Source: Candidatus Moraniibacteriota bacterium (GTDB lineage Bacteria > Patescibacteriota > Minisyncoccia > Moranbacterales > UBA2206). Taken from it: a stretch of DNA of 64,000 nucleotides. The first letter of the stretch is position 1; each line of letters opens with the position of its first letter. The stretch covers positions 2,020-66,019 of the forward strand of contig JBAQNP010000011.1 in assembly GCA_049303905.1 (NCBI GenBank). The letters are read 5' to 3'. The notes beneath the pieces were generated by a model that saw only the letters and a list, made by a program, of their open reading frames with translations, was not told the DNA's origin and searched no databases. The position numbers were made by a program, and so were the translations under genes. Positions 1,796 to 63,830 of the stretch are shown here, piece by piece.

Positions 1796-2785
1796 TTATT
1801 TTTTAACCGATAATAATGTCGTAACAAGCGCTGTCATTTGATTCTTTTTGTTTGGATTGCTTTCTGCAATTAAAAGTGTCAGAGCGGTAAGTGCACTCGG
1901 GTTGATGTTTTTTGCGCCTTGTATTTTTGTTTTTCGCAAAAACCACACAAAAGCAAAAGCGCCAGAACGTTTGTTTCCGTCGTCAAATGGATGATTCTTT
2001 ACCATAAAATACAAAAGATGGGCCGCCTTTTCTTCGGCAGTAGCGTATAAATTTTTGCCACCAAATGATTGCATCACATTTCCCACTATTCCTTCCACGC
2101 TTCCCACTCTTTTTTCTCGCGCAAAAAGATCAGAGGCTTCGCCTTTTTTCATAAGTTCAGCCCGAAGTTCGCCGATCGCTTCCGCCAACTCCCTGCCTGA
2201 CAACCGAACTGCTTTTTTAGTTGTGCCAATCGCGCTCAGAGCATCTTTGTCATAAGCATCCAAAGCTACCCAGGTACTGGCAAATTCTTTGATAAGTTCC
2301 AAAACTAGTTTCGGATCAAGTGTGACATGCTCTGGTAAAAGATTTTGAATACTGGCCACTGCGCCCATAAAAGCTTCATAATTTTTGGTGATTTGTTTTT
2401 TGTTGATTGTATAGCCTTTAACAATATGCTCACGAAGAGTTTTAGTCGCCCATTGGCGAAATTTGGTTGCATTTGTAGAGTTAACTCTATAGCCTATTGA
2501 TATTATTAAATCAAGATTATAGTATTCAATTTTTCTAGTAATCTTTCTTTTTCCTTCAAGTTGAACTGTTTCCATTTTGGAAACAGTTGACTTTTCATTT
2601 AATTCTCCTGTATTAAATATATTTTTAACATGTTTAGAAATTGCTGCTTTTTTTACATCAAATAACTGGCCAACTTGCTGTTGAGTAAGTAACATAGTTT
2701 CTCGCTTTTTATCTAAGCGAACTTCCACAGCGCCATCTTTGGCTTGATAGATAATTACCTCTTTTTGTTCTTTTTTGTTTTTCAT
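1796..2785 (-). CDS. Fic/Doc family protein with N-terminal RhuM-like domain
   Basis: C-terminal Fic motif HPFDDGNKRSGAFAFVWFL (HPFx[DE]GNxR). N-terminal IIYQAKDGAVEVRLDKKRETMLLTQQQVGQLFDV resembles RhuM virulence-protein family. Confidence 0.75.
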   Translation of the reverse strand: MKNKKEQKEVIIYQAKDGAVEVRLDKKRETMLLTQQQVGQLFDVKKAAISKHVKNIFNTGELNEKSTVSKMETVQLEGKRKITRKIEYYNLDLIISIGYRVNSTNATKFRQWATKTLREHIVKGYTINKKQITKNYEAFMGAVASIQNLLPEHVTLDPKLVLELIKEFASTWVALDAYDKDALSAIGTTKKAVRLSGRELAEAIGELRAELMKKGEASDLFAREKRVGSVEGIVGNVMQSFGGKNLYATAEEKAAHLLYFMVKNHPFDDGNKRSGAFAFVWFLRKTKIQGAKNINPSALTALTLLIAESNPNKKNQMTALVTTLLSVKK

Positions 2786-2798
2786 ATCTATAATTTTT

Positions 2799-3593
2799 TT
2801 ATTTTTTTGCTTTCAACTTTTTTATCCGAGTTTTTGCTCTAGATATTCCATCTGCTGATGATAGTTCTTCCGGCATCGTTCCACCCAATTCTTCAATTGT
2901 ACGCCGAACTTTTTGCCCGACATGAAAATGTGTCAAATTTGCGTTCATTTCGCCTTGAATTTTTTCTCTGCGTAATTTCGCATCGGCTTGAGTGGCGCGA
3001 AATAAGTTAGCTGCCAACTCTTCGCTCCCCATATGATCAAGTATTTTTTGAGATTTTTTTAAACCTTTCTTTTTGTGAATATCATTTGCATCCAGCCCTC
3101 CATACAATCCCTTGTATCCATAATTTTGAAATTTTCCATAATTACTAACTCCCGCATTTTCGGCGGCTTCAGCCAAAGATGTACTATGAGTTTTTATTTC
3201 ACTGCGCAAATGCAATCGCTTATTATCCTCTATCAACTGATCTGATTTTTCTTGTCTTCGAGTTTGAATCGCAAAATATGCCTGACCCAAAGCAACTACT
3301 TCTTTGGATGGATCGGAATTTTGGATAATTAGATAACACGCATAACGAGATAAATATATGGTATCAATCGCTCTTTTTGCACCTGAACCTATTTCGACCA
3401 TTTCGTCCACATGGGAAAAATGGTTGTGGATAACTTGACCACTATTTTTACATGCTTCTTTAGCTTTATTAATAACATTTAGGAATTTATCGTAGCTGGA
3501 ATAATCAAGCGCTTTTGCCAAATCGCGAGATGACCAAAATTCACTTTGGTATTCATTAATTTTTTTAATTTTTTCAAAAATATTGTTTTTCAT
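2799..3593 (-). CDS. dinD: DNA-damage-inducible protein D (DinD) family, paralog 1
   Basis: IGSGAKRAIDTIYLSRYACYLIIQNSDPSKEVVALGQAYFAIQTRRQE block is typical of DinD. Paralogous to 6018..6836. Confidence 0.7.
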   Translation of the reverse strand: MKNNIFEKIKKINEYQSEFWSSRDLAKALDYSSYDKFLNVINKAKEACKNSGQVIHNHFSHVDEMVEIGSGAKRAIDTIYLSRYACYLIIQNSDPSKEVVALGQAYFAIQTRRQEKSDQLIEDNKRLHLRSEIKTHSTSLAEAAENAGVSNYGKFQNYGYKGLYGGLDANDIHKKKGLKKSQKILDHMGSEELAANLFRATQADAKLRREKIQGEMNANLTHFHVGQKVRRTIEELGGTMPEELSSADGISRAKTRIKKLKAKK

Positions 3594-3703: not shown

Positions 3704-4459
3704 TTATTTTTCCACTTCCTTTACTGCCTGAATATAGGTGCAGTAGTCACATTCTTTTGAATATTTTGGAATTTTCGAACTCATCAGGCATTTCTTGGCG
3801 TCAATTAGAGCGCCTTCCACCCAACTGTCGTCCCCCACATAGGGAATGACTTTAACATTAAACTCCAATTTTCCATCAAAAGCCTCCTTGTCCTTGTCGC
3901 CGTTGCAATAAACAAAATATCCGGTGGTGGAAACTTTGAAGCCATTTTTGCGAAAAAGCCATTGATACATTTCCATTTGTCTTTTATAACCAATTTGCCA
4001 ATCGGCGTCCAAGCTCACTTCTCCATTTTTGGAAGTCGCCTTATAATCCACAATCAAAAGTTCGCCTTTCGGATTCACCCAAACATCATCTACTCCACCC
4101 GTGAATAATAGATTAGTTTTTGGATGCAGATATTGAATTCCTCTTCTCAAGGAATCTCGCCACTGATCCATTCGTTCGTCTTGAAACGGCACAGCGTCAA
4201 TTCCATATTCTTTCATCAAAGGATGAGTAGTTTCATTTGCCCTATGCACATCAAATTCTTTTTTTAGTAGTGCATCCACCGCTGAATTTAGATTAAACGG
4301 AAACCCCGGTGGCTGCCCAACTCCCAAACGACGATCCAAATAGAAACATCGAGGACAATTCAAAAACAGATCCAACTTAGACCGACTAATCCGAAAAGGC
4401 TCTTTTGATTTGGGATCAAAGAGATTTCTAATTCTTTTTGCTTTATAATATTCAGACAT
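3704..4459 (-). CDS. PD-(D/E)XK nuclease superfamily protein with four Cys (Cas4/RecB-nuclease-like, DUF83-like)
   Basis: GGVDDVW ... ELLIVDYKATSK gives D ... (D/E)xK. N-terminal CPRC and C-terminal CDYC cysteine pairs. Confidence 0.6.
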   Translation of the reverse strand: MSEYYKAKRIRNLFDPKSKEPFRISRSKLDLFLNCPRCFYLDRRLGVGQPPGFPFNLNSAVDALLKKEFDVHRANETTHPLMKEYGIDAVPFQDERMDQWRDSLRRGIQYLHPKTNLLFTGGVDDVWVNPKGELLIVDYKATSKNGEVSLDADWQIGYKRQMEMYQWLFRKNGFKVSTTGYFVYCNGDKDKEAFDGKLEFNVKVIPYVGDDSWVEGALIDAKKCLMSSKIPKYSKECDYCTYIQAVKEVEK

Positions 4460-6017: not shown

Positions 6018-6836
6018 TTATTTTTTACTTTTTTTCAACAATTTTTTCTTTTCTTTTTTCAATTCTTTGATATGTTTTTCAGTCGGTAATTCCTCTGGCA
6101 GAGTTCCGCCAATATCTTTGATAGTTTGTCGAACTTTTCCACCAATCATAAAGTGCGTTTGTGATGCATCACGATCACCTCGAATATTATCTTTTTTGAT
6201 TTTCTCGTCAGTTTGCGTAATTCGAAAAAGATTTGCCGCTAATTCAGTTGTTCCTGCCCTATCCAACAATTCACCTTTCTTGATACTTTTTCTATTTTCT
6301 ATTTCAGCCAACGACATTCCATACAATCCTTTATATCCTGCATCATTGAATGATCCAAATTTTGTAACTCCCGCTTTTTTTGCAGTTTTGAAAAGTTTTT
6401 TATTGTGATCTGAAACTTCACCTCGAATAAACAATCTTTTATCCACCCCTGAAAGTCCTTGGAATATTTCTTGTTTTCTGGTTTGAATCGCAAAGTAGGT
6501 TTGAGCCATAGCAATCTCCTGTTTTTTAGGATCACCATTTTGTGCAACCAAATAACAAGCATACCTATCCAATTTCCAGTCCCTCACTTCTCTTACTGTA
6601 TTTGAACCAATTTCGACCATTTTACTAAGTGCGGTAAAATGGTTATCCACAGCCTGACCGCTATTGATACATGCTTTAGCCGCCCTAGCTATAACCTCCT
6701 CGGCATTCTGCCATTTTTCATATCCCAAAACCAACATCAATTCGCGTGCTTCCCAATATTCAACACCACTCCTATCAACTTTTTTAATGTTTTCAAAATT
6801 TTTATTCAACGAATTTATGATTAACTCTTTTGTCAT
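6018..6836 (-). CDS. dinD: DinD family protein, paralog 2
   Basis: IGSNTVREVRDWKLDRYACYLVAQNGDPKKQEIAMAQTYFAIQTRKQE is the same conserved core as 2799..3593. Confidence 0.7.
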   Translation of the reverse strand: MTKELIINSLNKNFENIKKVDRSGVEYWEARELMLVLGYEKWQNAEEVIARAAKACINSGQAVDNHFTALSKMVEIGSNTVREVRDWKLDRYACYLVAQNGDPKKQEIAMAQTYFAIQTRKQEIFQGLSGVDKRLFIRGEVSDHNKKLFKTAKKAGVTKFGSFNDAGYKGLYGMSLAEIENRKSIKKGELLDRAGTTELAANLFRITQTDEKIKKDNIRGDRDASQTHFMIGGKVRQTIKDIGGTLPEELPTEKHIKELKKEKKKLLKKSKK

Positions 6837-6853
6837 ATTGACTTATTTTATTT

Positions 6854-7879
6854 TTATTTCCACCCCTGCCCAATTGCTCTCCAAATAATTTGTTCTTGAG
6901 GAACATTAATCATACCTTGCGGAGTTTGTTGTTGAACATTTTGTTGAACTTTTTTAAATTCCATATTAATTTCAAAAAAATTGGAAATTTCAGCACTTTC
7001 TACAAAAGCAATTTTATAACCTTTGCGATTCATTGCTTGATTTTCTCCCAATTCCAATTCGGGATTCCAAACTTGGCGAGTTTTCATTTCTTCAGCATAA
7101 TCTTCATAAATTTCTGTCATAAGATTTGCAAGTTCTGTGTCTGCGTTAACTACAGTTTTTATCCCCAAATCTTCCCTGGCTTCTTTTCTACCAATAAAAT
7201 ATTGATGGGAATATAATTTTTCTGTTAGAAATTCAATTATTTTTTCAATTTCTTCATCTTTCATTTTTTCTTTATGACTCTTGAGTAATCTTTTGGCAAG
7301 AATTTTTATCAACTCATGTGTTCGATTTACATTTCCCAAAGCCAATGGATGAATTGAGGGAGTAGCTTCTACAAATTTATTGAAAATTTTAACTAATTCC
7401 TCATCACCTTTTATTCCAAATTTATTTTTTGCCAAATCAAAGTAACTCATCACTTCTTCCACAGAAATCGGAATGCGATTTTGTGGATTTTTTGGATCAA
7501 TAGGATTGAAAACATTGGCGGTTGATGGATCAATCGGCGAAAGTTCACTCATATCACTCATCACAATTTCATCAGCTCCAAGTGCAATCATTGTCGCCGC
7601 ACTATGTGCTTTGTAAGGAATAATAACAGAAAACTTTTCGCAATATTCACGAATCATAGAAACTAAACGCCACGGAGTCATTGTGTCTCCACCAGCACTA
7701 TATAATATTAAATCTATTTTTTCTTGTTTTCCAATGCGTCGCAATTGTGAACTGATAATTGGAATAATATCCATTGCTACTCGAGCATTCACTGGTCCTT
7801 GTCGATCACTAGTTGCATAAGTTATAACCTTTGAACCTCTCTTGGTTTCAATTTTTTTGATCAAATCTTTCGTATTCAT
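6854..7879 (-). CDS. ClpP/crotonase-fold serine protease (SDH / S49-like family)
   Basis: LILYSAGGDTMTPWRLVSMIREY...AHSAATMIALGADEIVMSDMSELSPIDPS has SppA/SDH-proteinase-like nucleophile-serine context. 17 nt upstream of dinD paralog 2, same strand. Confidence 0.55.
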   Translation of the reverse strand: MNTKDLIKKIETKRGSKVITYATSDRQGPVNARVAMDIIPIISSQLRRIGKQEKIDLILYSAGGDTMTPWRLVSMIREYCEKFSVIIPYKAHSAATMIALGADEIVMSDMSELSPIDPSTANVFNPIDPKNPQNRIPISVEEVMSYFDLAKNKFGIKGDEELVKIFNKFVEATPSIHPLALGNVNRTHELIKILAKRLLKSHKEKMKDEEIEKIIEFLTEKLYSHQYFIGRKEAREDLGIKTVVNADTELANLMTEIYEDYAEEMKTRQVWNPELELGENQAMNRKGYKIAFVESAEISNFFEINMEFKKVQQNVQQQTPQGMINVPQEQIIWRAIGQGWK

Positions 7880-8012: not shown

Positions 8013-8507
8013 TTAAATTAAGATAATACTTTTTTCATCTTTCAATTCAGCTCCTATGACATTATCAAATAGTGATTCTTTAAGCCATTTATTTTTCTGT
8101 GTAAAATTATCGAAAGCTTCTTTAACATCATTCCCTTTTCCCCACCCTAATATTTGGCAATTCTCAACTTCTGGAAAATTATCCTCGGATCCTGGATAAA
8201 AAGTATAACCCTCGGTGGTATAGAAAATAAAATTTTTTATAGCTTTTATGTTGGTGATTTTTTCCAAAAATCCCTTCGACATTAATTTCAAAGTTTCTTC
8301 ATCTAAATTTTGTAAATTTTCCCACAATTCAAAAGTTTGATATTTTTCATCTTCTTCAATATTTTCCCACTCATCAGCCTCGATTTCTACAAAATCATCA
8401 TCTTCATCAGAATATTCTTTGCACATCACCAAAAATGGAAAATAGAAATCAGGATTTTCATCCAAGTATTTTAATATTTTTATCGCCAACTCTCTTGAAA
8501 TTTTCAT
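8013..8507 (-). CDS. acidic hypothetical protein, possible DpnD-like partner of the DpnI-like gene
   Basis: 164 aa, Asp/Glu-rich. Lies immediately downstream of the DpnI homolog, as dpnD does in the pneumococcal DpnI cassette (positional inference only). Confidence 0.4.
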   Translation of the reverse strand: MKISRELAIKILKYLDENPDFYFPFLVMCKEYSDEDDDFVEIEADEWENIEEDEKYQTFELWENLQNLDEETLKLMSKGFLEKITNIKAIKNFIFYTTEGYTFYPGSEDNFPEVENCQILGWGKGNDVKEAFDNFTQKNKWLKESLFDNVIGAELKDEKSIILI

Positions 8508-8571
8508 AAAATTGAACAGAAATTAATTTTTATTTCTGATCAATTTTTGATCGAATTTGAATTATTGTCAA

Positions 8572-9336
8572 CTAGCTCAATTTATATTTTCCTGGCTCAA
8601 TAAATTTTAAATATCCCTTGTCTCGCAAAAATTGCAATTGTTGACGAATTTTTGGCTTAATATTGTTATTTTCTGGATGAATAATAGCTAAATTTTTTTC
8701 AAAAGCATAGATATCTTGCAGAGAAAATTCTTTTTTACCCAAAGATTCAATACAATTCATAATATCCAAAATCCAACCTTTCAAATCTGTCCTTTTTATT
8801 TTTTTCAAAAAAGCAGTTTTTTGCCATTTTTTCAAAACTTCTTTTTTGGAAATTTCAGTTCCATTTTCTACATAAAAAATCTTGCCTGAATTGGGAATTT
8901 TATAAAATAAGATATTTGAACCAATCCAACCAGCTCTGCGTGCATTTTCTGACAAAGCTTTTCTTTTTTCAATAATTTCAGGAACAAAAAAATATTTTGG
9001 AACAATAAAAAAATCATTAACGGAAAATGTGGCTAAATATCCCATAAAAAAGAAATGTGGATTTTGTGGCGATTCTATTCTTTTTATTATCTGCGAATAT
9101 GCACCCGCTGAAACCTTTTTGCCAATTTTTCCTTTTTTGGATTTTAATTCAAAATCTTCTGAACATTTTTCACAATAAAAATCCGCTACAGGCTTATTGT
9201 TAGTATAATTTTCAATTTTATCTCCGCAGTTCGGACAATAAATTTCACTCCCAACCCACGCTTCAGTCAAAACTCTTATTTTTTGAGAATTACTATTATA
9301 TTTTTCCGCTAATTTTAAATCAAAAAATGTGTTCAT
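8572..9336 (-). CDS. dpnC: DpnI-like methyl-directed (Gm6ATC) type IIM restriction endonuclease
   Basis: 254 aa, the same length as DpnI. Blocks YNSNSQKIRVLTEAWV, YCPNCG, NKPVADFYCEKCSEDFELKSKKG, RRAGWIGSNI and IRQQLQFLRDKGYLKF match my recollection of S. pneumoniae DpnI almost residue-for-residue. Confidence 0.8.
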   Translation of the reverse strand: MNTFFDLKLAEKYNSNSQKIRVLTEAWVGSEIYCPNCGDKIENYTNNKPVADFYCEKCSEDFELKSKKGKIGKKVSAGAYSQIIKRIESPQNPHFFFMGYLATFSVNDFFIVPKYFFVPEIIEKRKALSENARRAGWIGSNILFYKIPNSGKIFYVENGTEISKKEVLKKWQKTAFLKKIKRTDLKGWILDIMNCIESLGKKEFSLQDIYAFEKNLAIIHPENNNIKPKIRQQLQFLRDKGYLKFIEPGKYKLS

Positions 9337-9413
9337 ATTTTCACCTATTTTAAGCCATTTTATACAGCCACTTGACTTTTACTTATTTATGGCTTAAAAT
9401 AAAAGATAAGAAA

Positions 9414-9519
9414 TCGGTATATGTGCGGATAGCCATGGCCGGTTTTTTTGTTGTATTTTTTCGAAAAAAGTGTACTATTATATATAAGGAGTCGGTATAT
9501 GTGCGGATAGCCATGGCCG
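9414..9519. repeat. two copies of a 28-nt direct repeat TCGGTATATGTGCGGATAGCCATGGCCG (9414-9441, 9492-9519), each followed by a T-run, with palindromic core GCCATGGC
   Basis: Exact 28/28 identity. Located between the DUF3800 stop and the DpnI-like start. A plus-strand TTGACT-N17-TAAAAT lies just upstream (9368-9400). Confidence 0.6.
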
Positions 9520-9528
9520 ACTTTTTTA

Positions 9529-10269
9529 TTATACAAGTATCTCGAAAATGCCAAGTCCCTTATCCATTTTTCTCTCAATTAGTCTTTTCATCATTCTCTC
9601 AACTTTTGTAAGTTTTTTCAGTTTACCCATTTTCATTTCATATACCATATCAGCCATCAAGGCCAGACTATCTGCTATTTGTATATCATCATCAAGATTT
9701 AATTTATTTACCAAACTTAATGATGTAATTTTTCCACGATAATCTGAACCGTTTATGCCCTCTGAAGGAATTCCGACTCCTTGTAATCTAGTGTGAGCCT
9801 CAATTAAATATTTATCTTGAGCTGGATCTGATTCAACAATAATTTTTCCATAAATCTTATCCTTCAAATGTTTTTTAACAAATTCTTCTAATATTTTATG
9901 ATAAGATTTTCTAAGTATTGCAATTTCATTCCATCCTATCTTCCTAGCCTTACCTTTATCGGTTATCACAAATGCAGGAGATATTTTATCTGAATTTAAA
10001 ATAGTCGTGAATTCTGACCAAAATTGAATCTCCTTCTCTCTGTCTTCTCTAAAAAAAGCAAAGGGTCCCTTTCTGCGGATCATATCCCTGCAATGAAATA
10101 CGATTTCCTCATCATCAAAATGTTTCTTTTTTAATTTGCACATTGCCCTATTAAGCTGGGCTTTAAAACTTTCTGGAATAATTATTCCAGACAAAATAAA
10201 ATTTTTTGATTTATGCTTCAAACTAGCCTTTCCCGTTTCATCGATAGCTAAAATTTTATATTTTTTCAT
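9529..10269 (-). CDS. DUF3800 family protein
   Basis: N-terminal KILAIDETGKAS matches the DUF3800 signature (YIDESG-like start); 246 aa. Confidence 0.55.
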   Translation of the reverse strand: MKKYKILAIDETGKASLKHKSKNFILSGIIIPESFKAQLNRAMCKLKKKHFDDEEIVFHCRDMIRRKGPFAFFREDREKEIQFWSEFTTILNSDKISPAFVITDKGKARKIGWNEIAILRKSYHKILEEFVKKHLKDKIYGKIIVESDPAQDKYLIEAHTRLQGVGIPSEGINGSDYRGKITSLSLVNKLNLDDDIQIADSLALMADMVYEMKMGKLKKLTKVERMMKRLIERKMDKGLGIFEILV

Positions 10270-10940: not shown

Positions 10941-11663
10941 TTAGCTTTGAAATTTCGGGATTTTGTTTTCGGCTGGTCGGCCGGCTTTTTTCCAAGCGGA
11001 AAAAGTGTTAAATTTTGCATAACTAATGGCGATAATTTTTTCTTTGGGTTCGCTTTTCCCGCAGGTGCGAGAAAAATAAACAACATATTCGGGTTTTTTT
11101 ATCCAGCTCAAAGAATCAGCCAATGCAAAAAGATCTGAAACTACCTTGTCAGTTTTTTCCTCAAAATCAGAGAAGGTGCTCACTTCAAAAATCATTTTAA
11201 CATTTCCTCTTTCACTGTTCACGATTACATCCGCTTCGATATAGTGCTTGCCTTCTTTCGGTCCGACTTTGACATATCTCCCAAGTTCAACAAGTTCAAA
11301 TGGATATTTATATTTCTCAACTAATTCTACATAAAGTTGAGCTTTAACAAGATTCTCTTCCTGCTCCTTTGATTCCTGCTTGTCTCCGGATAAATAAACC
11401 ACTCTGGATTCGTCGCGGATAATCAGAGTCTTGGCAAAAACTTGCGAAGCATACTTTCTTTCTCCTTTGTCAGCTAGACAAAATCCTTTGTTATTATTTT
11501 TATTTTCCAGAAGTGTTTCGAATTTTTCTGCTGAAAGAACCACCATCTTAGGACACCCTCTTTCTGTGAGAGTATAGTATGTATCACCTTTTTGCACTTC
11601 TTCGGCAATGTTAAAAATATTTTTTCTGGCCGATGTGATCGACAAAGTTGTTTTTGTACGCAT
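10941..11663 (-). CDS. fusion protein: N-terminal Phd/YefM antitoxin-like domain + C-terminal restriction-endonuclease-fold (HsdR-N/PD-(D/E)XK-like) domain
   Basis: N-terminal TLSITSARKNIFNIAEEVQKGDTYYTLTERGCPKMVVLSAEKFETL is YefM-like. C-terminal HYIEADVIVNSERGNVKMIFEVS resembles the D...E.K core. Confidence 0.5.
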   Translation of the reverse strand: MRTKTTLSITSARKNIFNIAEEVQKGDTYYTLTERGCPKMVVLSAEKFETLLENKNNNKGFCLADKGERKYASQVFAKTLIIRDESRVVYLSGDKQESKEQEENLVKAQLYVELVEKYKYPFELVELGRYVKVGPKEGKHYIEADVIVNSERGNVKMIFEVSTFSDFEEKTDKVVSDLFALADSLSWIKKPEYVVYFSRTCGKSEPKEKIIAISYAKFNTFSAWKKAGRPAENKIPKFQS

Positions 11664-11714: not shown

Positions 11715-12380
11715 TTATAGCAAGCCCTCACACTTCAAACTCAAAAAAGAATTTTCACTCACAATCACATGATCCGTTATTTCAATCCCAAGTATGTTTC
11801 CCGCTTCTACTAAGCGCTTGGTGATTTCCAAATCATCTTGCGAAGGATTCACGTCCCCTGACGGATGGTTGTGGCAAATTATTATCTGCGCAGCACAGTG
11901 GCGAATAGCCGGTTCGAAAACTTCCCGCGGATGAATTAAATTGGCGTTGAGAATTCCGACAGAGATAATTTCCCGTTGGATTTTTTGATTGCGCGTGTCC
12001 AAGTAGAAAACTACGAAATGTTCTTTCTTATTATCACGAATATCTTTCAAATTTTCCCACGTATCACGTGGGGACAAAATCAACTCAGTTTTTTTGCCAT
12101 TGAGAAATCTCCTGCCCAATTCAAAACAAGCTAAAATCTCCGCCGATTTGACCGGGCCAAGTCCGAAAGTTTTTTTGAGCTCAGAAAAACTCGCCTGAGA
12201 AATTCCCTCTCGGCCGAATTTTCGCAGAATTTTTTTAGAAATTTCAACCACACTCAAATCTTTTGTTCCACTTCGAAGAATTATCGCCAGAAGTTCCGAA
12301 TCAGACAGTTTCCCTGGACCATATTTTTCCATTTTTTCCCGCGGTCGATCGATACGCGGAATATCTTTTATTCTTGACAT
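11715..12380 (-). CDS. radC: RadC / UPF0758 JAB-domain protein
   Basis: JAMM motif HNHPSG and the SDSELLAIILRSGT helix-hairpin-helix region. Promoter TTGCAA-N16-TGGTATAAT ends 6 nt before the ATG, so likely leaderless. Confidence 0.85.
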   Translation of the reverse strand: MSRIKDIPRIDRPREKMEKYGPGKLSDSELLAIILRSGTKDLSVVEISKKILRKFGREGISQASFSELKKTFGLGPVKSAEILACFELGRRFLNGKKTELILSPRDTWENLKDIRDNKKEHFVVFYLDTRNQKIQREIISVGILNANLIHPREVFEPAIRHCAAQIIICHNHPSGDVNPSQDDLEITKRLVEAGNILGIEITDHVIVSENSFLSLKCEGLL

Positions 12381-21033: not shown

Positions 21034-21105
21034 TCCGCGATAGCTCAATGGTAGAGCAGTTGACTGTTAATCAATTGGTTCCAGGTTCGAGTCCTGGTCG
21101 CGGAG
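21034..21105 (+). tRNA. tRNA-Asn (anticodon GTT)
   Basis: Acceptor TCCGCGA/TCGCGGA, D arm GCTCAATGGTAGAGC, anticodon loop CTGTTAA, T arm CCAGGTTCGAGTCCTGG, discriminator G. Confidence 0.85.
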
Positions 21106-22698
21106 CAGAACTGGAGAACTAGAGTATAAAAGCTCTAGTTTTTCTTTATCTTCGGGCAAATTCAGAGGTTCGAACTTTCTGAATATCGTATTTAGCTCGG
21201 AAGATATTTTTTCTAGGCCAGCGAACTTATTATCGGCTCTAATATTGAGTTTTTTCTCAGAAAGTGAGAGGTTCGAACCAATCGCCCTAAATATCTCTTT
21301 TCGTTTTTCTTCATCGCCATTTCTGAACTTTTCAAGTGAGTCCTTGGCAAGCTCCAGCAATTCTTTCGTTTCTTCCAGCTGGTCTATCCAATAGGTTGAA
21401 TTGTCCTCACAAGCGTCCAAACTGGCCTTCAGCCGTCCTTTTTCTCGTGTTAGCTCATCTTTCTTCGTTGCGAATTCACCCTCGCTTAATTCGCCATTTA
21501 TTCGCATATCTAGGAGTCTAGCTAACTTGTTATCATAAGCTTCGCATTCCTTTTTTCGGTTTTCTAATGTTTGTTTCCTTTCCTCAATTTCTTCCTTGTT
21601 TTCCTTTCTGAGTTTTTCAATCGCCCATTCTAGGAATGTGGGGTGGATCTTTATTCTTTTTAGGATTCCAATGATTTCTTCTTCAAACTTCCTTTCCTCG
21701 ACTACTTTTTGATCGCATTTTGGATCTAACCTGTGACTACAGTGGTAGTAGATGTAATAATGAGTTTTGCCATTCTTGCATTTCTTAACTTTATGTTCAG
21801 CTACTATCGATGCTTCACATATTCCGCATCTGATCGCTCCTGTATATTTGAAACTGTATTTTCGTGGTCTGGTCGTTCCTCGTCGACCGAGTATCATTTG
21901 AGTCTTTTCGAATTCTGCTTGTGTGATCATCGGTTCATGCTTGCCTTTATGCCATTGGCCACTATCGGATGGAAATTCATACCAGCCGTAGTAGAAAGGG
22001 TTATTCATCATGGCGTACCATGAGCTGATGGAAACTTTTTGGCCATGCTTATTTGTAAAGTTCCATTCAGCAGTTCCTTTCCTGTATGCTTCTGGCGGAG
22101 TGAGTTTTCCTGAAGCGACCATTTTCAACATCTTTTGAATCGTTTCAAATCTTTCAGGATCTTTGATGATTTCTTTTTCGCCTTTGAGCTTGATGGGATT
22201 GTGTCTATATCCGAGTGGCGATCCATTAGGATACCACCCTCGCTCCGCTTTGTTTCGCAGGCCTCGCTTTGTGTCAGTGCTTAGATCGCGAATGAATTGG
22301 TTAGCCATTCCTTGCTCTACAGCCATCACTAGAACATTATCTTCAGGGTAATAACTTCTCCCGAATGTAAAAATATGTTTTATCATCTTACCCTGTAGCA
22401 TCCAACTTATCGTACCGCTATCTACAGGATTTCTAGACAGACGATTAAGTTTCCAACAAAGTATTCCATCAGCTTCGCCCCGTTTTATTTTTTCGAACAT
22501 TTCGTTAAAAACTATCCTCCCAGGCTCTTTGGCTGATTTGGATTCATGCATAATTTCAGATACATTCAACCCGTTTTCTTTTGCGAGTCTTTGTAACTCT
22601 TCAATTTGCGAGTCAATCGATGCCATTTGTCGATCCTCGCTTTCAGATGATTTTCGAGCGTAAAGAATGTACTTAGTTGCTCTTGTTTCTTGGTTCAT
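21067..22698 (-). CDS. large serine recombinase (resolvase/invertase-type catalytic domain + recombinase domain + zinc ribbon + coiled coil)
   Basis: N-terminal YARKSSESEDRQMASIDSQ (catalytic Ser region), zinc ribbon CGICEAS...YYHCSHR, long coiled coil. The annotated 3' end reads through the tRNA-Asn 3' half (last ~13 codons), so the true stop may be earlier or it overlaps att. Confidence 0.85.
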   Translation of the reverse strand: MNQETRATKYILYARKSSESEDRQMASIDSQIEELQRLAKENGLNVSEIMHESKSAKEPGRIVFNEMFEKIKRGEADGILCWKLNRLSRNPVDSGTISWMLQGKMIKHIFTFGRSYYPEDNVLVMAVEQGMANQFIRDLSTDTKRGLRNKAERGWYPNGSPLGYRHNPIKLKGEKEIIKDPERFETIQKMLKMVASGKLTPPEAYRKGTAEWNFTNKHGQKVSISSWYAMMNNPFYYGWYEFPSDSGQWHKGKHEPMITQAEFEKTQMILGRRGTTRPRKYSFKYTGAIRCGICEASIVAEHKVKKCKNGKTHYYIYYHCSHRLDPKCDQKVVEERKFEEEIIGILKRIKIHPTFLEWAIEKLRKENKEEIEERKQTLENRKKECEAYDNKLARLLDMRINGELSEGEFATKKDELTREKGRLKASLDACEDNSTYWIDQLEETKELLELAKDSLEKFRNGDEEKRKEIFRAIGSNLSLSEKKLNIRADNKFAGLEKISSELNTIFRKFEPLNLPEDKEKLELLYSSSPVLLRDQDSNLEPID

Positions 22699-58787: not shown

Positions 58788-61700
58788 CTAATTCCCAATC
58801 TTCTTCACCCACCCAAAGGTGCTTTCAAAGTTAGAGATGATGAGATCAAGAACTGATTGTTGTTTAGTTGGAGTGAGGAGGGAGTAGTTTTCAGAGATAG
58901 AGACATTACCGTGTTTGTCAAAGGAAGCAGTTCTGAATTGATAGACACTGGCAGGTTTTAGATCAGTCAGAACAAAGAGATGGTTTTTGGTGAGATCTTG
59001 TTTTTTGATGAGTTTCCAGTTATCAATTTTAGTTATGTCAGGGTTTTTGAGTTGATCAATTAGATTAGGGTCTTTTTCTACTCCTTCGCGGTAAGCCAGG
59101 ATAGAATTAGAATCTTTGTCAGTGTTCCAACTAATGATGGTTTGGATTTGAGCTTCTTTACCAGGAAAGACGGTGGTGTCAGATTTAACGTTGGTGATAG
59201 TCGGAGCGTTGAGATCTTCCTCGGTTGTGAAACTCTGCTCTTCACTACTAGATTCATTGTTAAATGCGTCTTTGGAAGAGACTTTGAAGGTGTAGCGCGT
59301 ACCAGGGAAAAGGTTGGTGAGGGTGAAGGAGTGGTCAGTGACCGCTTCGAGTTCTCCGTTGGTGGTACCTTTGGTCTCTCCATCTTTTTTGAATTCTACT
59401 CGGGAGTCTGTTTTGACGTTAGTTTGCCAATTAATGGTGGCGGATTCGATTTGGATATCTTTGATGGTAACATTGGAGATTACTGGGAGAGAGGTGGTGG
59501 TGAAGGAGTAGTCGTCACTGGTGAGAGTTTGACCGTCAGAGTCGGTGGCAGTGACTCTTAGGTGGTAAGTGGTGTTTTCGTTGAGGTTAGTGAGATTAAC
59601 TGTGTGGAGATTACTGGTAGTTTTACCTTTGTCAGATTTTCCATATTTAATTGATTCACCGTATTCAAGTTGGGAAGAGTCAATGGAGCCAGTGGTGGTC
59701 CAAGAGATATCAGCAGAGTTGAGGGTGAGGTTGGAAATGGAGATACCAGAGAGACTGGCAGTGTCTCCGGTGGAGAAAGATTTGTTTTCTGATTGGGTGG
59801 TGGTACCTAGGAGTCCTTCAGAGTAAGCGTAGTAGTTATACTGAGTGTTAGCGTTCAAGTTTTTAATTATGATTTCGTGGTCTGTCCTAGCAGCAGTAAT
59901 GTTTTCCGCTTGACTCGTTGCCGTGTCCTCGTTGTCAGTGTCTTGCCAATAGTAAATCTTTCCAATAGCTGGTCGGTTGGTGGTCCAGGAGAAAGTAGCT
60001 GTGGTATCAGTGATATCTACAGATGGGCCACTGCTGGTAATGGAGATAGAGTAGAGTCCAGAGAGAGCGTCTTGGATTTCGGCTTCGGTGAAATAGTAGT
60101 TGTCGATCATATCTTGGATTTGGGACATGATGTCGGTAAGTTGGTCGCCTTCGCCATCTGCGTCAACATCTTCGGTTGGGGAGGTGGTGGTGAAGGTGAG
60201 AAGATTATTTGAGTCGTCTTTGTTTTGGGTGGAAAGATTATCATCAGAATCTCTTGAAGAAACCTTAAAATAATATGTAGTAACTGAGTTTAAGCCATTT
60301 AATAAAACTTCATGAACAGTGACTGATTCAGTAGAAGCATTTCCTTTACTCTCTGCATATTCCTCTGCTATTCCATAATCCACCAAACTATTCCCCACCA
60401 CATCCGTCACCCACCTCACCACCGCACTGTCATACTTAATATCACTCACGACAATATCAGAAATAGTCGGTCCGGTAGTGTCGGGAGTTTCTTCTGAGTT
60501 AGTAGTGAAAGTATAATCTGTATTGCTGTTAGTATTAGGATTGGAGTTTTCATCCGTGGCAGTAATTTTGAAATGATAGGTGGTGTTAGGAGTGAGTTCT
60601 TCTAAATCAAAGACTTGATTGATGTTTAGATTATCACTGGTAAGCGTAGTGCCATAACTAGTGTCTGTTCCATATTCCAAAGTTGAAGTTGATTGTTCAC
60701 TAGTGGTGAAATTGATTTTAGCGGTAGTGGTGGTTTTGGAAATATCAGTGTTGGAGTTGAAAGTAATGGTTGGGGCAATAAGGTCTTGCGTAGTAGTAAA
60801 GGAGTAATAGCTGTTAATGGGATATTGGTTGTTGTCAGTAGCAGTGTCTCCATTGTAAGTTGATTGGGCATAGAAATAGTATTTAGTTCCTTGAAGAAGT
60901 CCAGTAATAGTCACTTCATGATTGGTAGAATCTTGGCTGGTACCTAAGAAGTTTTCTGCATTAGACATATCTGAAAAGGTAGAATAGTTAATTTTAGAAG
61001 AAGCGGCGATGTCAGTAATCCAATTGATGGTAGCTGAAGTGTTGGTGGTTTTAGAAACTAAAACAGAACCACTGGTGATTTTTGGTCCGGGGAGAGTTTT
61101 GAAATGATAGCCAAGATGATTATTATCGGCGTTATCGTCAGTGCCTGTAATAGCATTAGTGCCCGTAGATTTGACTTGGAAATAGTAGTCGGTGTCAGGA
61201 GTGAGATTAGTAAGCACTACAGTGTGCGGTCCATAGTGGCCGGTGGAACTATTGTCATACATTGTATCAGAGCCAACTTCAGTAGTGAATGATCCGGGGG
61301 TGATGGAATACCCGACAGTAGAATTAGAAAAAACATCCGTACTCCAAGTGATGGTGGCCTGGGAAGTGAAAATGGGAGAAGGTGGGATTTGGACATCGGA
61401 AATAATTGGCGGAGCGGTAGATGTGCCTCCTCCTCCTTCACCATAGTTTTGAATTCCATCAGCTTTGGCTTGGACAGTTTCTGAAAAGAAAGATTGGTTA
61501 CTATTAGAATCAATTGTTTTGACTTTGTAGAAATATTCAGTGTCTCCTACTACGGTATTATCAGGATAGGAGTTGGTGGATTGAGTGTAGGTGAAAAAGA
61601 TTTGATTAAAAGTGCTGTTGTCAGTAGAGCGATAGAGCTCATAGCGATTAAAATTTGGATCAGTGGATACTTTCCAAGCAATGAAGAGTCGAAATTCATT

Positions 61701-63830
61701 AGGAGTGGTAAGGGTGTTAGTGGTATCTTGGACCATAAAAGCAGTAGGGGTTTCGGGGGAGGTGGTGTAAGAGATGCTTGATTCGTTATTGTATTGGTCT
61801 TTTAGTTGGAGACAAATGGTGAATGGATCTTGAGCGGGAGTGATGGTGGGAGTGGCATTATATGTTTCGTAACTTGCAGAAGAAAGAGCGATTTGGCAAG
61901 CATCTGAATCTTCTCCTTGAGCGAGTTTCATTTGATAGGTAGAGTCATCAGAGGATGTAATGTTGATTTGGGCGGGAGAAACGGAAGCGTCTAAATCCAC
62001 ATCAGTAATAACGGGTGGTTTGGTGTCGAGGGTGAAGTTAGTGGAAGCTAAGATGGCGGTGTTGTTGGCGGCTTCACCATCATTAACTATCGCTTTAATT
62101 TGCGTATCAGTTTCATAAGTGGTAATTTCAATACCCGATTCACAACCTGGATCCCAAACGGCGGAGTATGGCAAGAAGTTTGTTTCTTCGACGGTTTTTT
62201 GATCTAGATCATTTGCGCCAAGACAACCAGCAGTAATATTAGTCCAGTTTGTTCCGCCATCGATGGAATATTGAAAAGATGGAGTCACTTTATACCTGTT
62301 AACCAAAGTAGCCGTGGAAGTGTCAGGATCACGAGCTTCATAGGCAATATTGACATTGCCGGAAGAATCAGGACTGGCGGTGACATTTTGAATTTGAGGA
62401 GCGCCATTGACTACATAGACCATTTGAATATCATCTACTGTCGGAGCATTACCCATTCCTTTGGAAAGTTCCAGTTTGTATTGGAAATATCGATCATCAG
62501 TTCCATCTTTCATTCCGGCGGGAATAATTGTTTGATCACAAGAAACTGCGGTAGAGTTTTTTTCACAACCAGTGGTCAAACTGCTAGGAGTTGAAAGCGC
62601 CACTTCGGTCCAACTGGCGCCGGAAAGTGCGGTGGCGTCGGCACCGGTGCGCAAATATATTTTTGTTTGAGAGCCATCTTGCAATGTTTCATCTTCTTCC
62701 CAGCTTACTCCTCCGAGGGCATTGGCAGAGTCGGTGGAATCATAGGGGGAGGAAATAAGAGAGCCAGCATCGCCATAGTAGACCACCAAGTCATACATCA
62801 CTGGAGTTTTTGCCAAATCATCCGTACCTAAGACAACTTGATATTGAAAATATCTTTCACCGTCATCCACGCAATTATTATTTGAAATGTCAGTGTTATT
62901 AGAAACCAAATCACAAGTTGACCAAGCCGGAGCAGTACTCATATTAGAATTGGAATCCGTTCGTACTTTGATCGAAAGAGAAGTATTGGGCAAAACATTA
63001 TCCGTCCAAACCACATTCAAATAATCTTTTCCTGAAGCACCAGTATCTTTGATTGAACTGGTAAAAGTTGATTCATAAGTTCTCATGGCTGTCGTCGGCA
63101 ATTCATAGTCCACATTCACATTATCCGTAATTGGAAAATCAGTTCCGCCCACCACATTAGCAATGAGGATGGCGCGATATTGAAAATATCGATCACTGGT
63201 TTGATCGCGAAAAGCGGAAGCGGTTTGTTCTCCCCCATTGGGATCAGAAAACCAACTTTCCGTTCCTCCGCTCGGCCCCATCCAAGAAGTCCAAGTGGCA
63301 TTATCCGCCGAAGAACGTATTTGATAAACGACATTAGAAGTTCCCGCCAAAGTTTCACTCCAACTCAAACTGTTGATGATATTTTTGGAATCCTGTGAAT
63401 CAAAAATGGAAGAAGTTAGAACGGCGGTATTGGTAGTGATTAAAACATCATAAACGGTCGGCGTAGCGGACAAATTATTTGTTCCCAAAACTACATTATA
63501 TTGAATATATCGCAAACCATCATAAGCATCCAAGGAATTTCCATTAGTGAGTTCTGCCGACCAAGCCGTCCAAGTGCCGTCCGGCGTCACAACATTTCCC
63601 GCTCTGACTTTGAAAACCAAAGAAGTGCTAGCGGGAACATTCAATCCCCAGCTGATTGTTCCATAGTCCACCGAGGAGTGATAATTATCCATTACTCGTG
63701 AAGTAAAAGTTGATTCATAAGCGGATGCTTTCGCGCTATCCGTTTTTAAAAATAAAAAACAAAAAACCGCCAAACAAAATATTGCTACTGAAAAAATTGA
63801 TTTTAATTTGTACATCTTTGTCTTTTTCAT
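58788..63830 (-). CDS. giant (1680 aa) secreted cell-surface protein with many fibronectin-type-III-like repeats
   Basis: Signal peptide MKKTKMYKLKSIFSVAIFCLAVFCFLF; repeated FN3-like blocks (...TYHFKITATDENSN..., ...YYFKVSSRDSDDN..., ...YYFYAQSTYNGD..., ...RYTFKVSSKDAFNN...); Thr/Ser-rich. Confidence 0.7.
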   Translation of the reverse strand: MKKTKMYKLKSIFSVAIFCLAVFCFLFLKTDSAKASAYESTFTSRVMDNYHSSVDYGTISWGLNVPASTSLVFKVRAGNVVTPDGTWTAWSAELTNGNSLDAYDGLRYIQYNVVLGTNNLSATPTVYDVLITTNTAVLTSSIFDSQDSKNIINSLSWSETLAGTSNVVYQIRSSADNATWTSWMGPSGGTESWFSDPNGGEQTASAFRDQTSDRYFQYRAILIANVVGGTDFPITDNVNVDYELPTTAMRTYESTFTSSIKDTGASGKDYLNVVWTDNVLPNTSLSIKVRTDSNSNMSTAPAWSTCDLVSNNTDISNNNCVDDGERYFQYQVVLGTDDLAKTPVMYDLVVYYGDAGSLISSPYDSTDSANALGGVSWEEDETLQDGSQTKIYLRTGADATALSGASWTEVALSTPSSLTTGCEKNSTAVSCDQTIIPAGMKDGTDDRYFQYKLELSKGMGNAPTVDDIQMVYVVNGAPQIQNVTASPDSSGNVNIAYEARDPDTSTATLVNRYKVTPSFQYSIDGGTNWTNITAGCLGANDLDQKTVEETNFLPYSAVWDPGCESGIEITTYETDTQIKAIVNDGEAANNTAILASTNFTLDTKPPVITDVDLDASVSPAQINITSSDDSTYQMKLAQGEDSDACQIALSSASYETYNATPTITPAQDPFTICLQLKDQYNNESSISYTTSPETPTAFMVQDTTNTLTTPNEFRLFIAWKVSTDPNFNRYELYRSTDNSTFNQIFFTYTQSTNSYPDNTVVGDTEYFYKVKTIDSNSNQSFFSETVQAKADGIQNYGEGGGGTSTAPPIISDVQIPPSPIFTSQATITWSTDVFSNSTVGYSITPGSFTTEVGSDTMYDNSSTGHYGPHTVVLTNLTPDTDYYFQVKSTGTNAITGTDDNADNNHLGYHFKTLPGPKITSGSVLVSKTTNTSATINWITDIAASSKINYSTFSDMSNAENFLGTSQDSTNHEVTITGLLQGTKYYFYAQSTYNGDTATDNNQYPINSYYSFTTTQDLIAPTITFNSNTDISKTTTTAKINFTTSEQSTSTLEYGTDTSYGTTLTSDNLNINQVFDLEELTPNTTYHFKITATDENSNPNTNSNTDYTFTTNSEETPDTTGPTISDIVVSDIKYDSAVVRWVTDVVGNSLVDYGIAEEYAESKGNASTESVTVHEVLLNGLNSVTTYYFKVSSRDSDDNLSTQNKDDSNNLLTFTTTSPTEDVDADGEGDQLTDIMSQIQDMIDNYYFTEAEIQDALSGLYSISITSSGPSVDITDTTATFSWTTNRPAIGKIYYWQDTDNEDTATSQAENITAARTDHEIIIKNLNANTQYNYYAYSEGLLGTTTQSENKSFSTGDTASLSGISISNLTLNSADISWTTTGSIDSSQLEYGESIKYGKSDKGKTTSNLHTVNLTNLNENTTYHLRVTATDSDGQTLTSDDYSFTTTSLPVISNVTIKDIQIESATINWQTNVKTDSRVEFKKDGETKGTTNGELEAVTDHSFTLTNLFPGTRYTFKVSSKDAFNNESSSEEQSFTTEEDLNAPTITNVKSDTTVFPGKEAQIQTIISWNTDKDSNSILAYREGVEKDPNLIDQLKNPDITKIDNWKLIKKQDLTKNHLFVLTDLKPASVYQFRTASFDKHGNVSISENYSLLTPTKQQSVLDLIISNFESTFGWVKKIGN

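Follow-up and report, generated by a model that had tools for sequence, protein, structure and literature searches.

A stretch of 64,000 nucleotides (nt) from a metagenome-assembled genome (MAG) of Candidatus Moraniibacteriota, referred to below as the window, contains on its minus strand a two-gene locus that is built around a DpnI-type restriction endonuclease. The first gene of this locus, an open reading frame (ORF) of 254 amino acids (aa) at 8572..9336, is recognized by the families PF06044 and PF17726, by the solved structure PDB 4esj, and by the PADLOC model mREase_II. Downstream of it on the same strand, after a gap of 64 nt, the ORF list gives a second ORF of 164 aa (8013..8507), which is called here the partner. 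The gap itself (8508..8571, minus strand) is occupied by a promoter-like element that includes two copies of GATC. NCBI lists both proteins on one contig of 70,195 bp, as MFZ2975277.1 ('DpnI domain-containing protein') and MFZ2975276.1 ('hypothetical protein WA055_01425'). The initial annotation, which was made from the bare sequence, had assigned the locus to a genome resembling those of the Candidate Phyla Radiation (CPR), and this assignment was correct: the phylum of the source lies within the Patescibacteria/CPR group. TGA is a rare stop codon in the window, where it ends 2 of the 46 long ORFs.

The DpnI-type endonuclease

The ORF at 8572..9336 is a full-length member of the DpnI family of type IIM endonucleases, a membership secured to the extent that sequence alone allows. 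PF06044, the N-terminal DpnI catalytic domain, is matched with 253.3 bits (cut-off 26.7; E 1.5e-75) over profile positions 1-182 of 183, and PF17726, the DpnI_C winged helix, is matched with 111.8 bits (cut-off 23; E 1.8e-32) over residues 186-252. The ORF is intact, its residues 2-252 are collinear with R.DpnI in PDB 4esj (E 1.3e-78), and the PADLOC model 'Type II methyl-directed restriction enzyme' (mREase_II) gives E 1.5e-104. The protein equals pneumococcal DpnI in length, shares its two-domain architecture, and is 47.6% identical to it. A block-by-block likeness to DpnI had been claimed in the initial annotation; with both Pfam domains far above their cut-offs when the hidden Markov models (HMMs) of the family are run, and with this structural match and identity, the likeness lies far beyond chance. 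In particular, the 254-aa translation contains YCPNCGDK, YCEKCSED, and IRQQLQFLRDKGY, and the motifs that had been read from it earlier (CPNCG, CEKC, and IRQQLQFLRDKG) are all present.

Key residues were taken from two structure papers (PMC3424567 and PMC4117772) and mapped onto the window protein. In R.DpnI, the catalytic PD-(D/E)XK residues are E25, D53, E64, and K66, and zinc is held by a Cys4 site (PMC3424567). Base contacts are made by Q18, N48, and R126, the methyl cleft consists of L129, R135, W138, and G140, and the winged helix contributes K229/R231 (PMC4117772). All of these are kept in the window protein: the catalytic residues as E25, D52, E63, and K65, the zinc site as two CXXC motifs (C34, C37, C55, and C58), the base contacts as Q18, N47, and R125, the methyl-binding cleft as L128, R134, W137, and G139, and the winged-helix residues as K229 and R231, so that 17 of 17 functional residues are conserved relative to DpnI. 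The PD-(D/E)XK core, the zinc element, and the C-terminal winged helix that had been proposed from the letters are thereby confirmed by HMM, solved structure, and residue mapping, and the catalytic core shows no substitution. Because the functional residues are fully conserved, the window enzyme is predicted to depend on Gm6ATC for cleavage and to cut at no other form of the site.

The enzyme itself is ordinary, already annotated, and not new. The DpnI family is very large: over 7,500 clusters were found, many of which come from CPR MAGs and bear the name DpnI or type II restriction enzyme already. With homologs so abundant in CPR metagenomes, this one adds little. The protein is basic, with an isoelectric point (pI) of 9.5 and a net charge of +16.

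In classical type II restriction-modification, a cognate methyltransferase stands beside the endonuclease; none is present in the window. Six D12 (Dam-class) and N6_N4 queries found no methyltransferase homolog within these 64 kb, and a motif scan located (D/N/S)PP[YFWH] in no real ORF of the same stretch. GATC has an observed/expected ratio of 0.74 in the window, a mild depletion that is not diagnostic; it is the second-lowest of the 4-mer palindromes, the most depleted being GGCC at 0.55. That the host would be without Dam methylation of GATC follows from the known behavior of DpnI, the scope of the analysis being the 64-kb window.

The partner gene and the spacer that precedes it

The partner protein has a pI of 4.26 and a net charge of -20, and it consists of two domains. 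The N-terminal acidic domain, or N-domain (residues 1-86; 8250..8507, minus strand), has a pI of 4.06 and a net charge of -16 and, besides this extreme acidity, is rich in aromatic residues. The C-terminal domain, or C-domain (residues 89-164; 8016..8243, minus strand), occurs elsewhere as stand-alone copies. There are 563 relatives of the partner at E<=0.01, and those with a named source are nearly all CPR. In their alignment the N-domain (~86 residues) is highly conserved, that of the window protein being 76-84% identical to ten single-domain relatives, and the C-domain varies between subfamilies. A profile search with the N-domain through 1.84 billion proteins returned only 93 clusters at 50% identity. 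The local Pfam copy holds no domain that matches the partner, and a scan of the 93 clusters against it gave no match except one weak DUF; full-length relatives carry the precomputed label PF27350.1.

The initial annotation had noted a small acidic ORF in the position that dpnD occupies in the DpnI cassette. As a statement about position this is right, given the same strand, the 64-nt gap, and the pI of 4.26; the protein, however, has no DpnD/PcfM domain. PF14207 (DpnD/PcfM) is not matched in it even at E<=10, and its C-domain, when compared with the DpnD/PcfM alignment, reaches an hhalign probability of 0.9%; these two results rule out the partner as a DpnD/PcfM protein. The N-domain is nevertheless fused to a true PF14207 in at least five clusters (P0089, P0258, P0292, P0357, and P0358). 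AlphaFold models of the full-length partner and of the N-domain are confident (pLDDT, the predicted local distance difference test score, of 84.9 and 78.8, respectively). As modeled, neither appears to have a structural relative in PDB or BFVD, or any likeness to Ocr and ArdA, which are acidic DNA-mimic anti-restriction proteins. A phage-borne origin of the family is ruled out by the finding of no relative among 2.9 million viral contigs.

The relationship between DpnI and the gene that follows it was examined by two censuses. The partner-first census comprised metagenome loci with at least 850 nt upstream of the N-domain gene (n=55), to which shorter loci (n=20) were added. DpnI lies directly upstream on the same strand in 49 of the 55 full loci (89%), and the 3' part of DpnI is seen upstream of the partner in 13 of the 20 shorter ones. 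This genomic linkage shows that, in CPR genomes, the acidic N-domain is nearly always found directly behind a DpnI gene. The DpnI-first census covered 80 species-representative genome loci. Here the N-domain family occupies the slot that follows DpnI in about one-fifth of the loci. The window-type C-domain stands there alone in 4 (L019, L026, L080, and L082, loci being designated by L numbers), the commonest alternative tail alone in 5, and DpnD/PcfM in 7 (L083-L087, L048, and L050); the loci with PF14207 in the slot are from Bacteroidota, Mariprofundaceae, and some CPR members. A 67-aa zinc-ribbon protein, the commonest alternative occupant, is found in ~14 loci, others have a nucleotidyltransferase-like protein, which in some cases is joined to an N6_N4 methylase, and the remainder have unrelated genes. 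With the PF14207 fusions and the other modules in the same slot, this domain census shows that the N-domain can be fused to, or replaced by, DpnD/PcfM and further small modules. (The zinc-ribbon protein has a double CXXC, FPKHACQxCG...RCxQCEKEW, belongs to no Pfam family, and begins ~35-40 nt past the DpnI stop; L011, L017, L037, L042, L049, and L062 are among the examples.)

The spacer between dpnI and the partner contains a rigidly arranged element, which starts immediately past the DpnI stop codon with TTGAC(A/T). In the window, a -35-like TTGACA (8566..8571) is followed after 13 nt by the first GATC (8549..8552), then by a -10-like AAAAAT (8543..8548), and then by the second GATC (8538..8541), all on the minus strand, to give TTGACA-N13-GATC-AAAAAT-TGATC. 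A simple promoter scan of the window returned TTGACA-17-AAAAAT at 8571..8543, which is the conserved site itself. At least one GATC, and usually two, is present in 60 of the 62 unique DpnI-partner spacers. The density in these spacers (129 in 3169 nt, or ~41/kb) compares with 1.9/kb for the 120-nt stretch ahead of dpnI and 2.3/kb over all loci, an enrichment of ~18-fold. The distance from TTGAC to GATC is exactly 13 nt in 84 of 85 unique instances. After the first GATC the element continues in either a short form, AAN-GATC, or a long form, AA(A/G)A(A/G)T(T/G/A)-GATC, of which the window is an example. In either case an A-rich hexamer (AAAAAT or AAnGAT) stands at the canonical 17 nt from the -35-like hexamer, and the GATC pair flanks or overlaps it. 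The start codon follows at no constant distance (4-5 nt in the short form, ~30 nt in the long one), and because of this variation, the element would have a role linked to the promoter rather than to ribosome binding.

Positional counts set this arrangement apart from the genomic background. GATC pairs with a spacing of 7 or 11 occur 113 times in 1.23 Mb of loci, and 79 of these are within 80 nt past a DpnI stop; of the others, at least 14 are directly 5' of partner genes with no DpnI stop mapped upstream. The pair at 8538..8552 is the only one in the 64-kb window. These counts, together with the control upstream of dpnI, rule out the paired GATC as a generic genome feature or as a part of the dpnI promoter. 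Zinc-ribbon, tail-only, and C-domain-only genes that follow DpnI have the same motif in front of them, and non-CPR loci in which DpnD/PcfM overlaps the DpnI stop lack it. That neighboring positions of the spacer vary freely argues for selection acting on TTGAC and the GATC pair. By its match to consensus, the element is taken to be the partner's own promoter, and the GATC pair possibly couples expression of the partner to GATC methylation or to the binding of DpnI.

In the long form, the base of an 11-bp hairpin (core at 8513..8542, minus strand, in the window) is made up of the second GATC and a third box, which is degenerate. The hairpin positions are 87.9% paired, versus 27-63% with slid partners, with swaps between GC and AU and frequent G.U pairs. 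The window hairpin has a folding energy of -14.8 kcal/mol (z -2.7) in an extended fold that reaches the AUG.

Surroundings of dpnI in the window and in related loci

In the region upstream of dpnI (9337..9528, minus strand), the ATG is preceded by AGGTGA, which resembles a Shine-Dalgarno sequence. The region also has an inverted repeat of 13 nt (9346-9358 / 9389-9401) and a GC-rich direct repeat of ~57 nt in two copies (9399-9455 and 9477-9533). The copies are 84% identical, each can form a small stem-loop, and their GC-rich core, GGCCATGGCTATCCGCACATATACCG, is set in a region of 29% GC between the DUF3800 gene and dpnI. This core is found nowhere else in the window, in no related fetched locus, and in no Rfam family; with no occurrence in a related locus, the direct repeat is ruled out as a conserved part of the cassette. 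The DUF3800 gene (9529..10269, minus strand; PF12686, 2.3e-4) is directly upstream of dpnI in the window and upstream of DpnI also in L001 and L006. However, upstream neighbors are variable (n=44: Bro-N 6, D12 3, DUF3800 3), and DUF3800, with 3 of 44, is rejected as a fixed third member of the cassette.

The initial annotation had described an island of other nucleases and toxins around the locus, and such an island exists: the defense-type genes span 1.8-12.4 kb, all on the minus strand, and are followed by housekeeping genes for cell-wall and aminotransferase functions. The stretch begins with a RhuM+Fic gene (1796..2785; Pfam, and the PADLOC candidate system PDC-S23), a DinD/Bro-N gene (2799..3593; Pfam, and the PADLOC candidate system PDC-S13), and a Cas4-like PD-(D/E)XK nuclease (3704..4459; Pfam, and PADLOC Cas4). 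Two ORFs with no family match separate the latter from a second DinD-like (Bro-N) gene (6018..6836; PADLOC PDC-S13), after which come a ClpP-like SDH protease (6854..7879; Pfam) and the DpnI locus. Beyond the DUF3800 gene there are an ORF that joins a Phd/YefM-antitoxin-like N-terminus with an HSDR_N-like region (10941..11663; Pfam, and NCBIfam phd_fam) and RadC (11715..12380; Pfam). The NCBIfam DinD match in the island has E 5.5e-100, and the two DinD-like genes are paralogs, both matching PDC-S13 at about 1e-106. By their family matches, these neighbors are candidate defense genes; in other loci Bro-N, Fic, SDH protease, and AbiEii recur beside DpnI. Farther along the window, a large serine recombinase of 543 aa (21034-22698; Resolvase, Recombinase, and zinc-ribbon domains) adjoins a tRNA-Asn, which suggests that an integrated mobile element, separate from the DpnI island, begins at ~21 kb. 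The far end of the window has a 1680-aa ORF (58788-63830) with a signal-peptide-like N-terminus.

In some of the related loci, a truncated D12 ORF abuts the start of dpnI. Relative to the 253 positions of the D12 profile, these ORFs retain positions 1-198 in L024 (5260-5997) and L027 (5254-5997), 1-161 in L071 (5308-5979), 1-52 in L114 (1576-1965) and L085 (5799-6020), and 1-39 in L086 (5837-5995). The lineages with such a Dam remnant include CPR, Saprospiraceae, and a Flavobacterium isolate. Such remnants lend indirect support to the expectation of a host without Dam. L050 has a nearly complete Dam-like D12 (positions 1-233) ~1 kb upstream of an intact dpnI, and divergent but complete D12 methylases are near intact DpnI genes in L001 and L099. 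Because complete or nearly complete D12 genes stand near intact DpnI in these three loci, membership in the D12 family alone does not predict a conflict with DpnI. In L001 (7308-9568; contig shared with L098), the start of the complete divergent D12 methylase is overlapped by a 455-aa protein of no family, two genes downstream of dpnI. These probably form a restriction-modification pair of their own, in addition to DpnI.

N6_N4 methylases are found in this neighborhood as well. Directly downstream of dpnI, several CPR loci have an unusual gene in which a minimal nucleotidyltransferase-like domain is fused to an N6_N4 methylase (THPPY): L024 (6731-7774), L034 (1988-2983), and also L027 (6802-7656) and L035 (4325-5182). 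In L006 and L018, around 7033-7200, only C-terminal remnants of the N6_N4 methylase are left. In two Bacteroidota loci, immediately after dpnI, DpnD/PcfM is either fused to an N6_N4 methylase (DPPY; L087, 6955-8058) or followed by a separate one (DPPY; L085, 6773-7401); in both, a methylase travels with the methylation-dependent nuclease.

Interpretation and comparison with known systems

The locus is probably a two-gene DpnI cassette, which pairs the DpnI enzyme with an accessory gene that is separately controlled and possibly sensitive to GATC methylation. The first gene would encode a monomeric type IIM endonuclease that acts with no need of a cognate methyltransferase. Its PD-(D/E)XK and winged-helix domains would both bind Gm6ATC, as they do in pneumococcal R.DpnI, only adenine-methylated GATC would be cut, and incoming DNA that had been replicated in, or methylated by, a Dam-type system would be destroyed. 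The second gene would be transcribed from its own promoter-like element, separately from dpnI, to yield an accessory or regulator of DpnI, and the GATC pair would tie this expression to the state of GATC methylation or to DpnI binding. The leading guess is that the acidic partner may bind and modulate the basic DpnI; a direct modulator is plausible because the charges are complementary (+16 for DpnI and -16 for the N-domain). In a Dam-negative host, the GATCs of the spacer would become methylated only through the activity of a foreign Dam. An extension of this scheme, which is rather unlikely, is a 'methylation alarm', in which the promoter would sense Gm6ATC or its occupation by DpnI, in a cell where Gm6ATC is normally absent. 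A Dam borne by a phage or plasmid would then mark the DNA and change the state of the promoter, and the acidic partner, or DpnD/PcfM, the zinc-ribbon protein, and other modules of the slot, might modulate DpnI or act as a second line.

Several points weigh against the two-gene cassette. In 6 of the 55 full metagenome loci the partner is preceded by something other than DpnI, and in 5 of these the motif and the partner gene stand behind other defense genes: GmrSD (L091 and L101), type I HsdS (L100), HsdR (L144), and a Schlafen-type helicase (L137). (In the sixth, L133, the motif is absent.) The link of the partner is therefore not exclusive to DpnI. Seen from the other side, ~80% of DpnI genes in the genome census have another gene downstream, and since these are the majority, DpnI can function without the partner. 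The recurrence of the motif is partly a matter of inheritance, as the loci are related by descent and the counts are inflated accordingly. The sigma-70-like reading of the spacer is a consensus match in a group of bacteria whose promoters are poorly characterized, the fold searches with the partner gave no functional clue, and what is said of enzyme, expression, and methylation in this organism is in each case derived from sequence.

What the partner does could be understood in other ways. One of these narrows the accessory hypothesis to a single kind of action: the partner would be a DNA-mimic or antitoxin-like inhibitor of DpnI. The extremely acidic N-domain with its many aromatic residues, set against a basic DpnI, would suit such an inhibitor, as would the tight genetic linkage, and the element that separates dpnI from the partner suggests separate regulation. 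The proposal is rather unlikely, however, given that no fold likeness to Ocr, ArdA, or other solved or viral structures was found, that the gene lies downstream of the nuclease and not upstream, and that many DpnI genes are without a partner. It is also unlikely that the 164-aa ORF is the CPR ortholog of pneumococcal DpnD and the locus a plain dpnC-dpnD pair. In S. pneumoniae the DpnI locus is made up of dpnC and dpnD (PMC4471560), and the window gene lies where dpnD would, on the strand of dpnI; genuine PF14207 genes come after DpnI in the seven loci listed above, and relatives of the N-domain are fused to PF14207. Nevertheless, the partner has neither a PF14207 match at E<=10 nor, in its C-domain, an appreciable hhalign probability (0.9%).

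Other explanations would reassign the spacer or the enzyme. The partner and its GATC promoter might form an autonomous unit that lodges behind restriction genes generally, as a hitch-hiker or a general restriction modulator. The loci with GmrSD, HsdS, HsdR, or the Schlafen-type helicase are what such a unit would produce, and it has an apparent promoter of its own; but DpnI precedes the partner in 89% of loci, the motif stands before other small genes solely after DpnI, and the embedded sites are exactly the recognition sequence of DpnI, which is hard to explain if DpnI is irrelevant. An autonomous unit is thus not a likely account. Still less likely is that TTGAC-N13-GATC..GATC is a recombination junction for the exchange of downstream modules rather than a promoter. 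The downstream genes are indeed highly variable while the junction is constant, and the Dam-like remnants show that dpnI loci have been remodeled by recombination. However, the geometry fits a promoter with 17 nt between -35 and -10, it is fixed to TTGAC and not to either coding sequence, the element is always 5' of a gene on the same strand, and no recombinase is consistently nearby. Finally, the DpnI-like protein could be inactive or of a different specificity, its identity to the characterized enzyme being only 47.6% and a complete-looking or nearly complete D12 standing beside intact DpnI in L001, L099, and L050. This is very improbable, as all catalytic, zinc, base-contact, and methyl-sensing residues are kept in an intact ORF that is collinear with 4esj, and membership in the D12 family does not establish GATC specificity.

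A two-gene cassette of this kind, with a modular DpnI-linked partner behind a paired-GATC promoter-like element, is to our knowledge undescribed in the literature that was searched. No paper was found there that treats DpnI together with CPR or Patescibacteria, and what was found on dpnD was limited to statements of unknown function. In CPR bacteria the dpnI slot holds modular small proteins, preceded by a rigidly spaced element with two DpnI targets, and the cassette thus offers a cheaply testable hypothesis on how a methylation-dependent nuclease with no methylase partner may be controlled, together with a testable lead on the role of dpnD-type genes. If true, the methylation alarm would be the first functional handle on such genes.

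The closest known system is R.DpnI of S. pneumoniae (dpnC; PDB 4esj/4kyw), which the window enzyme resembles in length, two-domain architecture, identity, and all key residues. R.DpnI cleaves substrates with two sites better than those with one, in a type IIE-like manner (PMC3424567), a property that bears on the proposed role of the GATC pair. As in the window, the pneumococcal nuclease gene is followed by a small gene of unspecified function on the same strand, the dpnD product being a protein of unknown function (PMC4471560). The two cassettes differ in that the present one resides in a CPR host and its downstream gene is not DpnD/PcfM. The conserved paired-GATC promoter-like element is described here for the spacers of the window and related loci. 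Genes of the DpnD/PcfM family (PF14207) do occupy the same slot and are fused elsewhere to the window-type acidic N-domain, whereas the window protein ends in a C-domain of another kind, which looks unrelated. Another member of the DpnI family, NmeBII, is encoded by the dam-replacing gene (drg) of N. meningitidis and is mutually exclusive with Dam (PMC516771). The six related loci in which dpnI abuts a 5' Dam-family remnant resemble drg, and the truncated Dam genes, found there in several lineages, extend the meningococcal dam-replacement scenario beyond Neisseria. Unlike drg, the window locus has no Dam remnant, and its dpnI is located in a defense island behind a DUF3800 gene.

The partner and the spacer also have analogs outside the DpnI family. 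Like Ocr and ArdA, the partner is small, very acidic, and genetically tied to restriction functions. It is unlike them in that it has no sequence or fold likeness to them, is absent from the viral contigs, and is encoded by the cell beside the nuclease. With respect to the spacer, some restriction-modification promoters contain the recognition site of their own system, as in the case of CfrBI. Other promoters are Dam-sensitive and have GATC in or close to the -10 element, an example being that of the IS10 transposase. IS10 is listed among the elements with GATC in a core promoter and with regulation in Dam+ bacteria (PMC10073500). In the window, too, the methylation target is inside the core promoter-like elements, and because of this location transcription could report the methylation state. 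There is, however, a difference in what would be reported: the window host is expected to be Dam-negative, so that methylation of GATC would signify an intruding Dam rather than the cell cycle or a methylase of its own.

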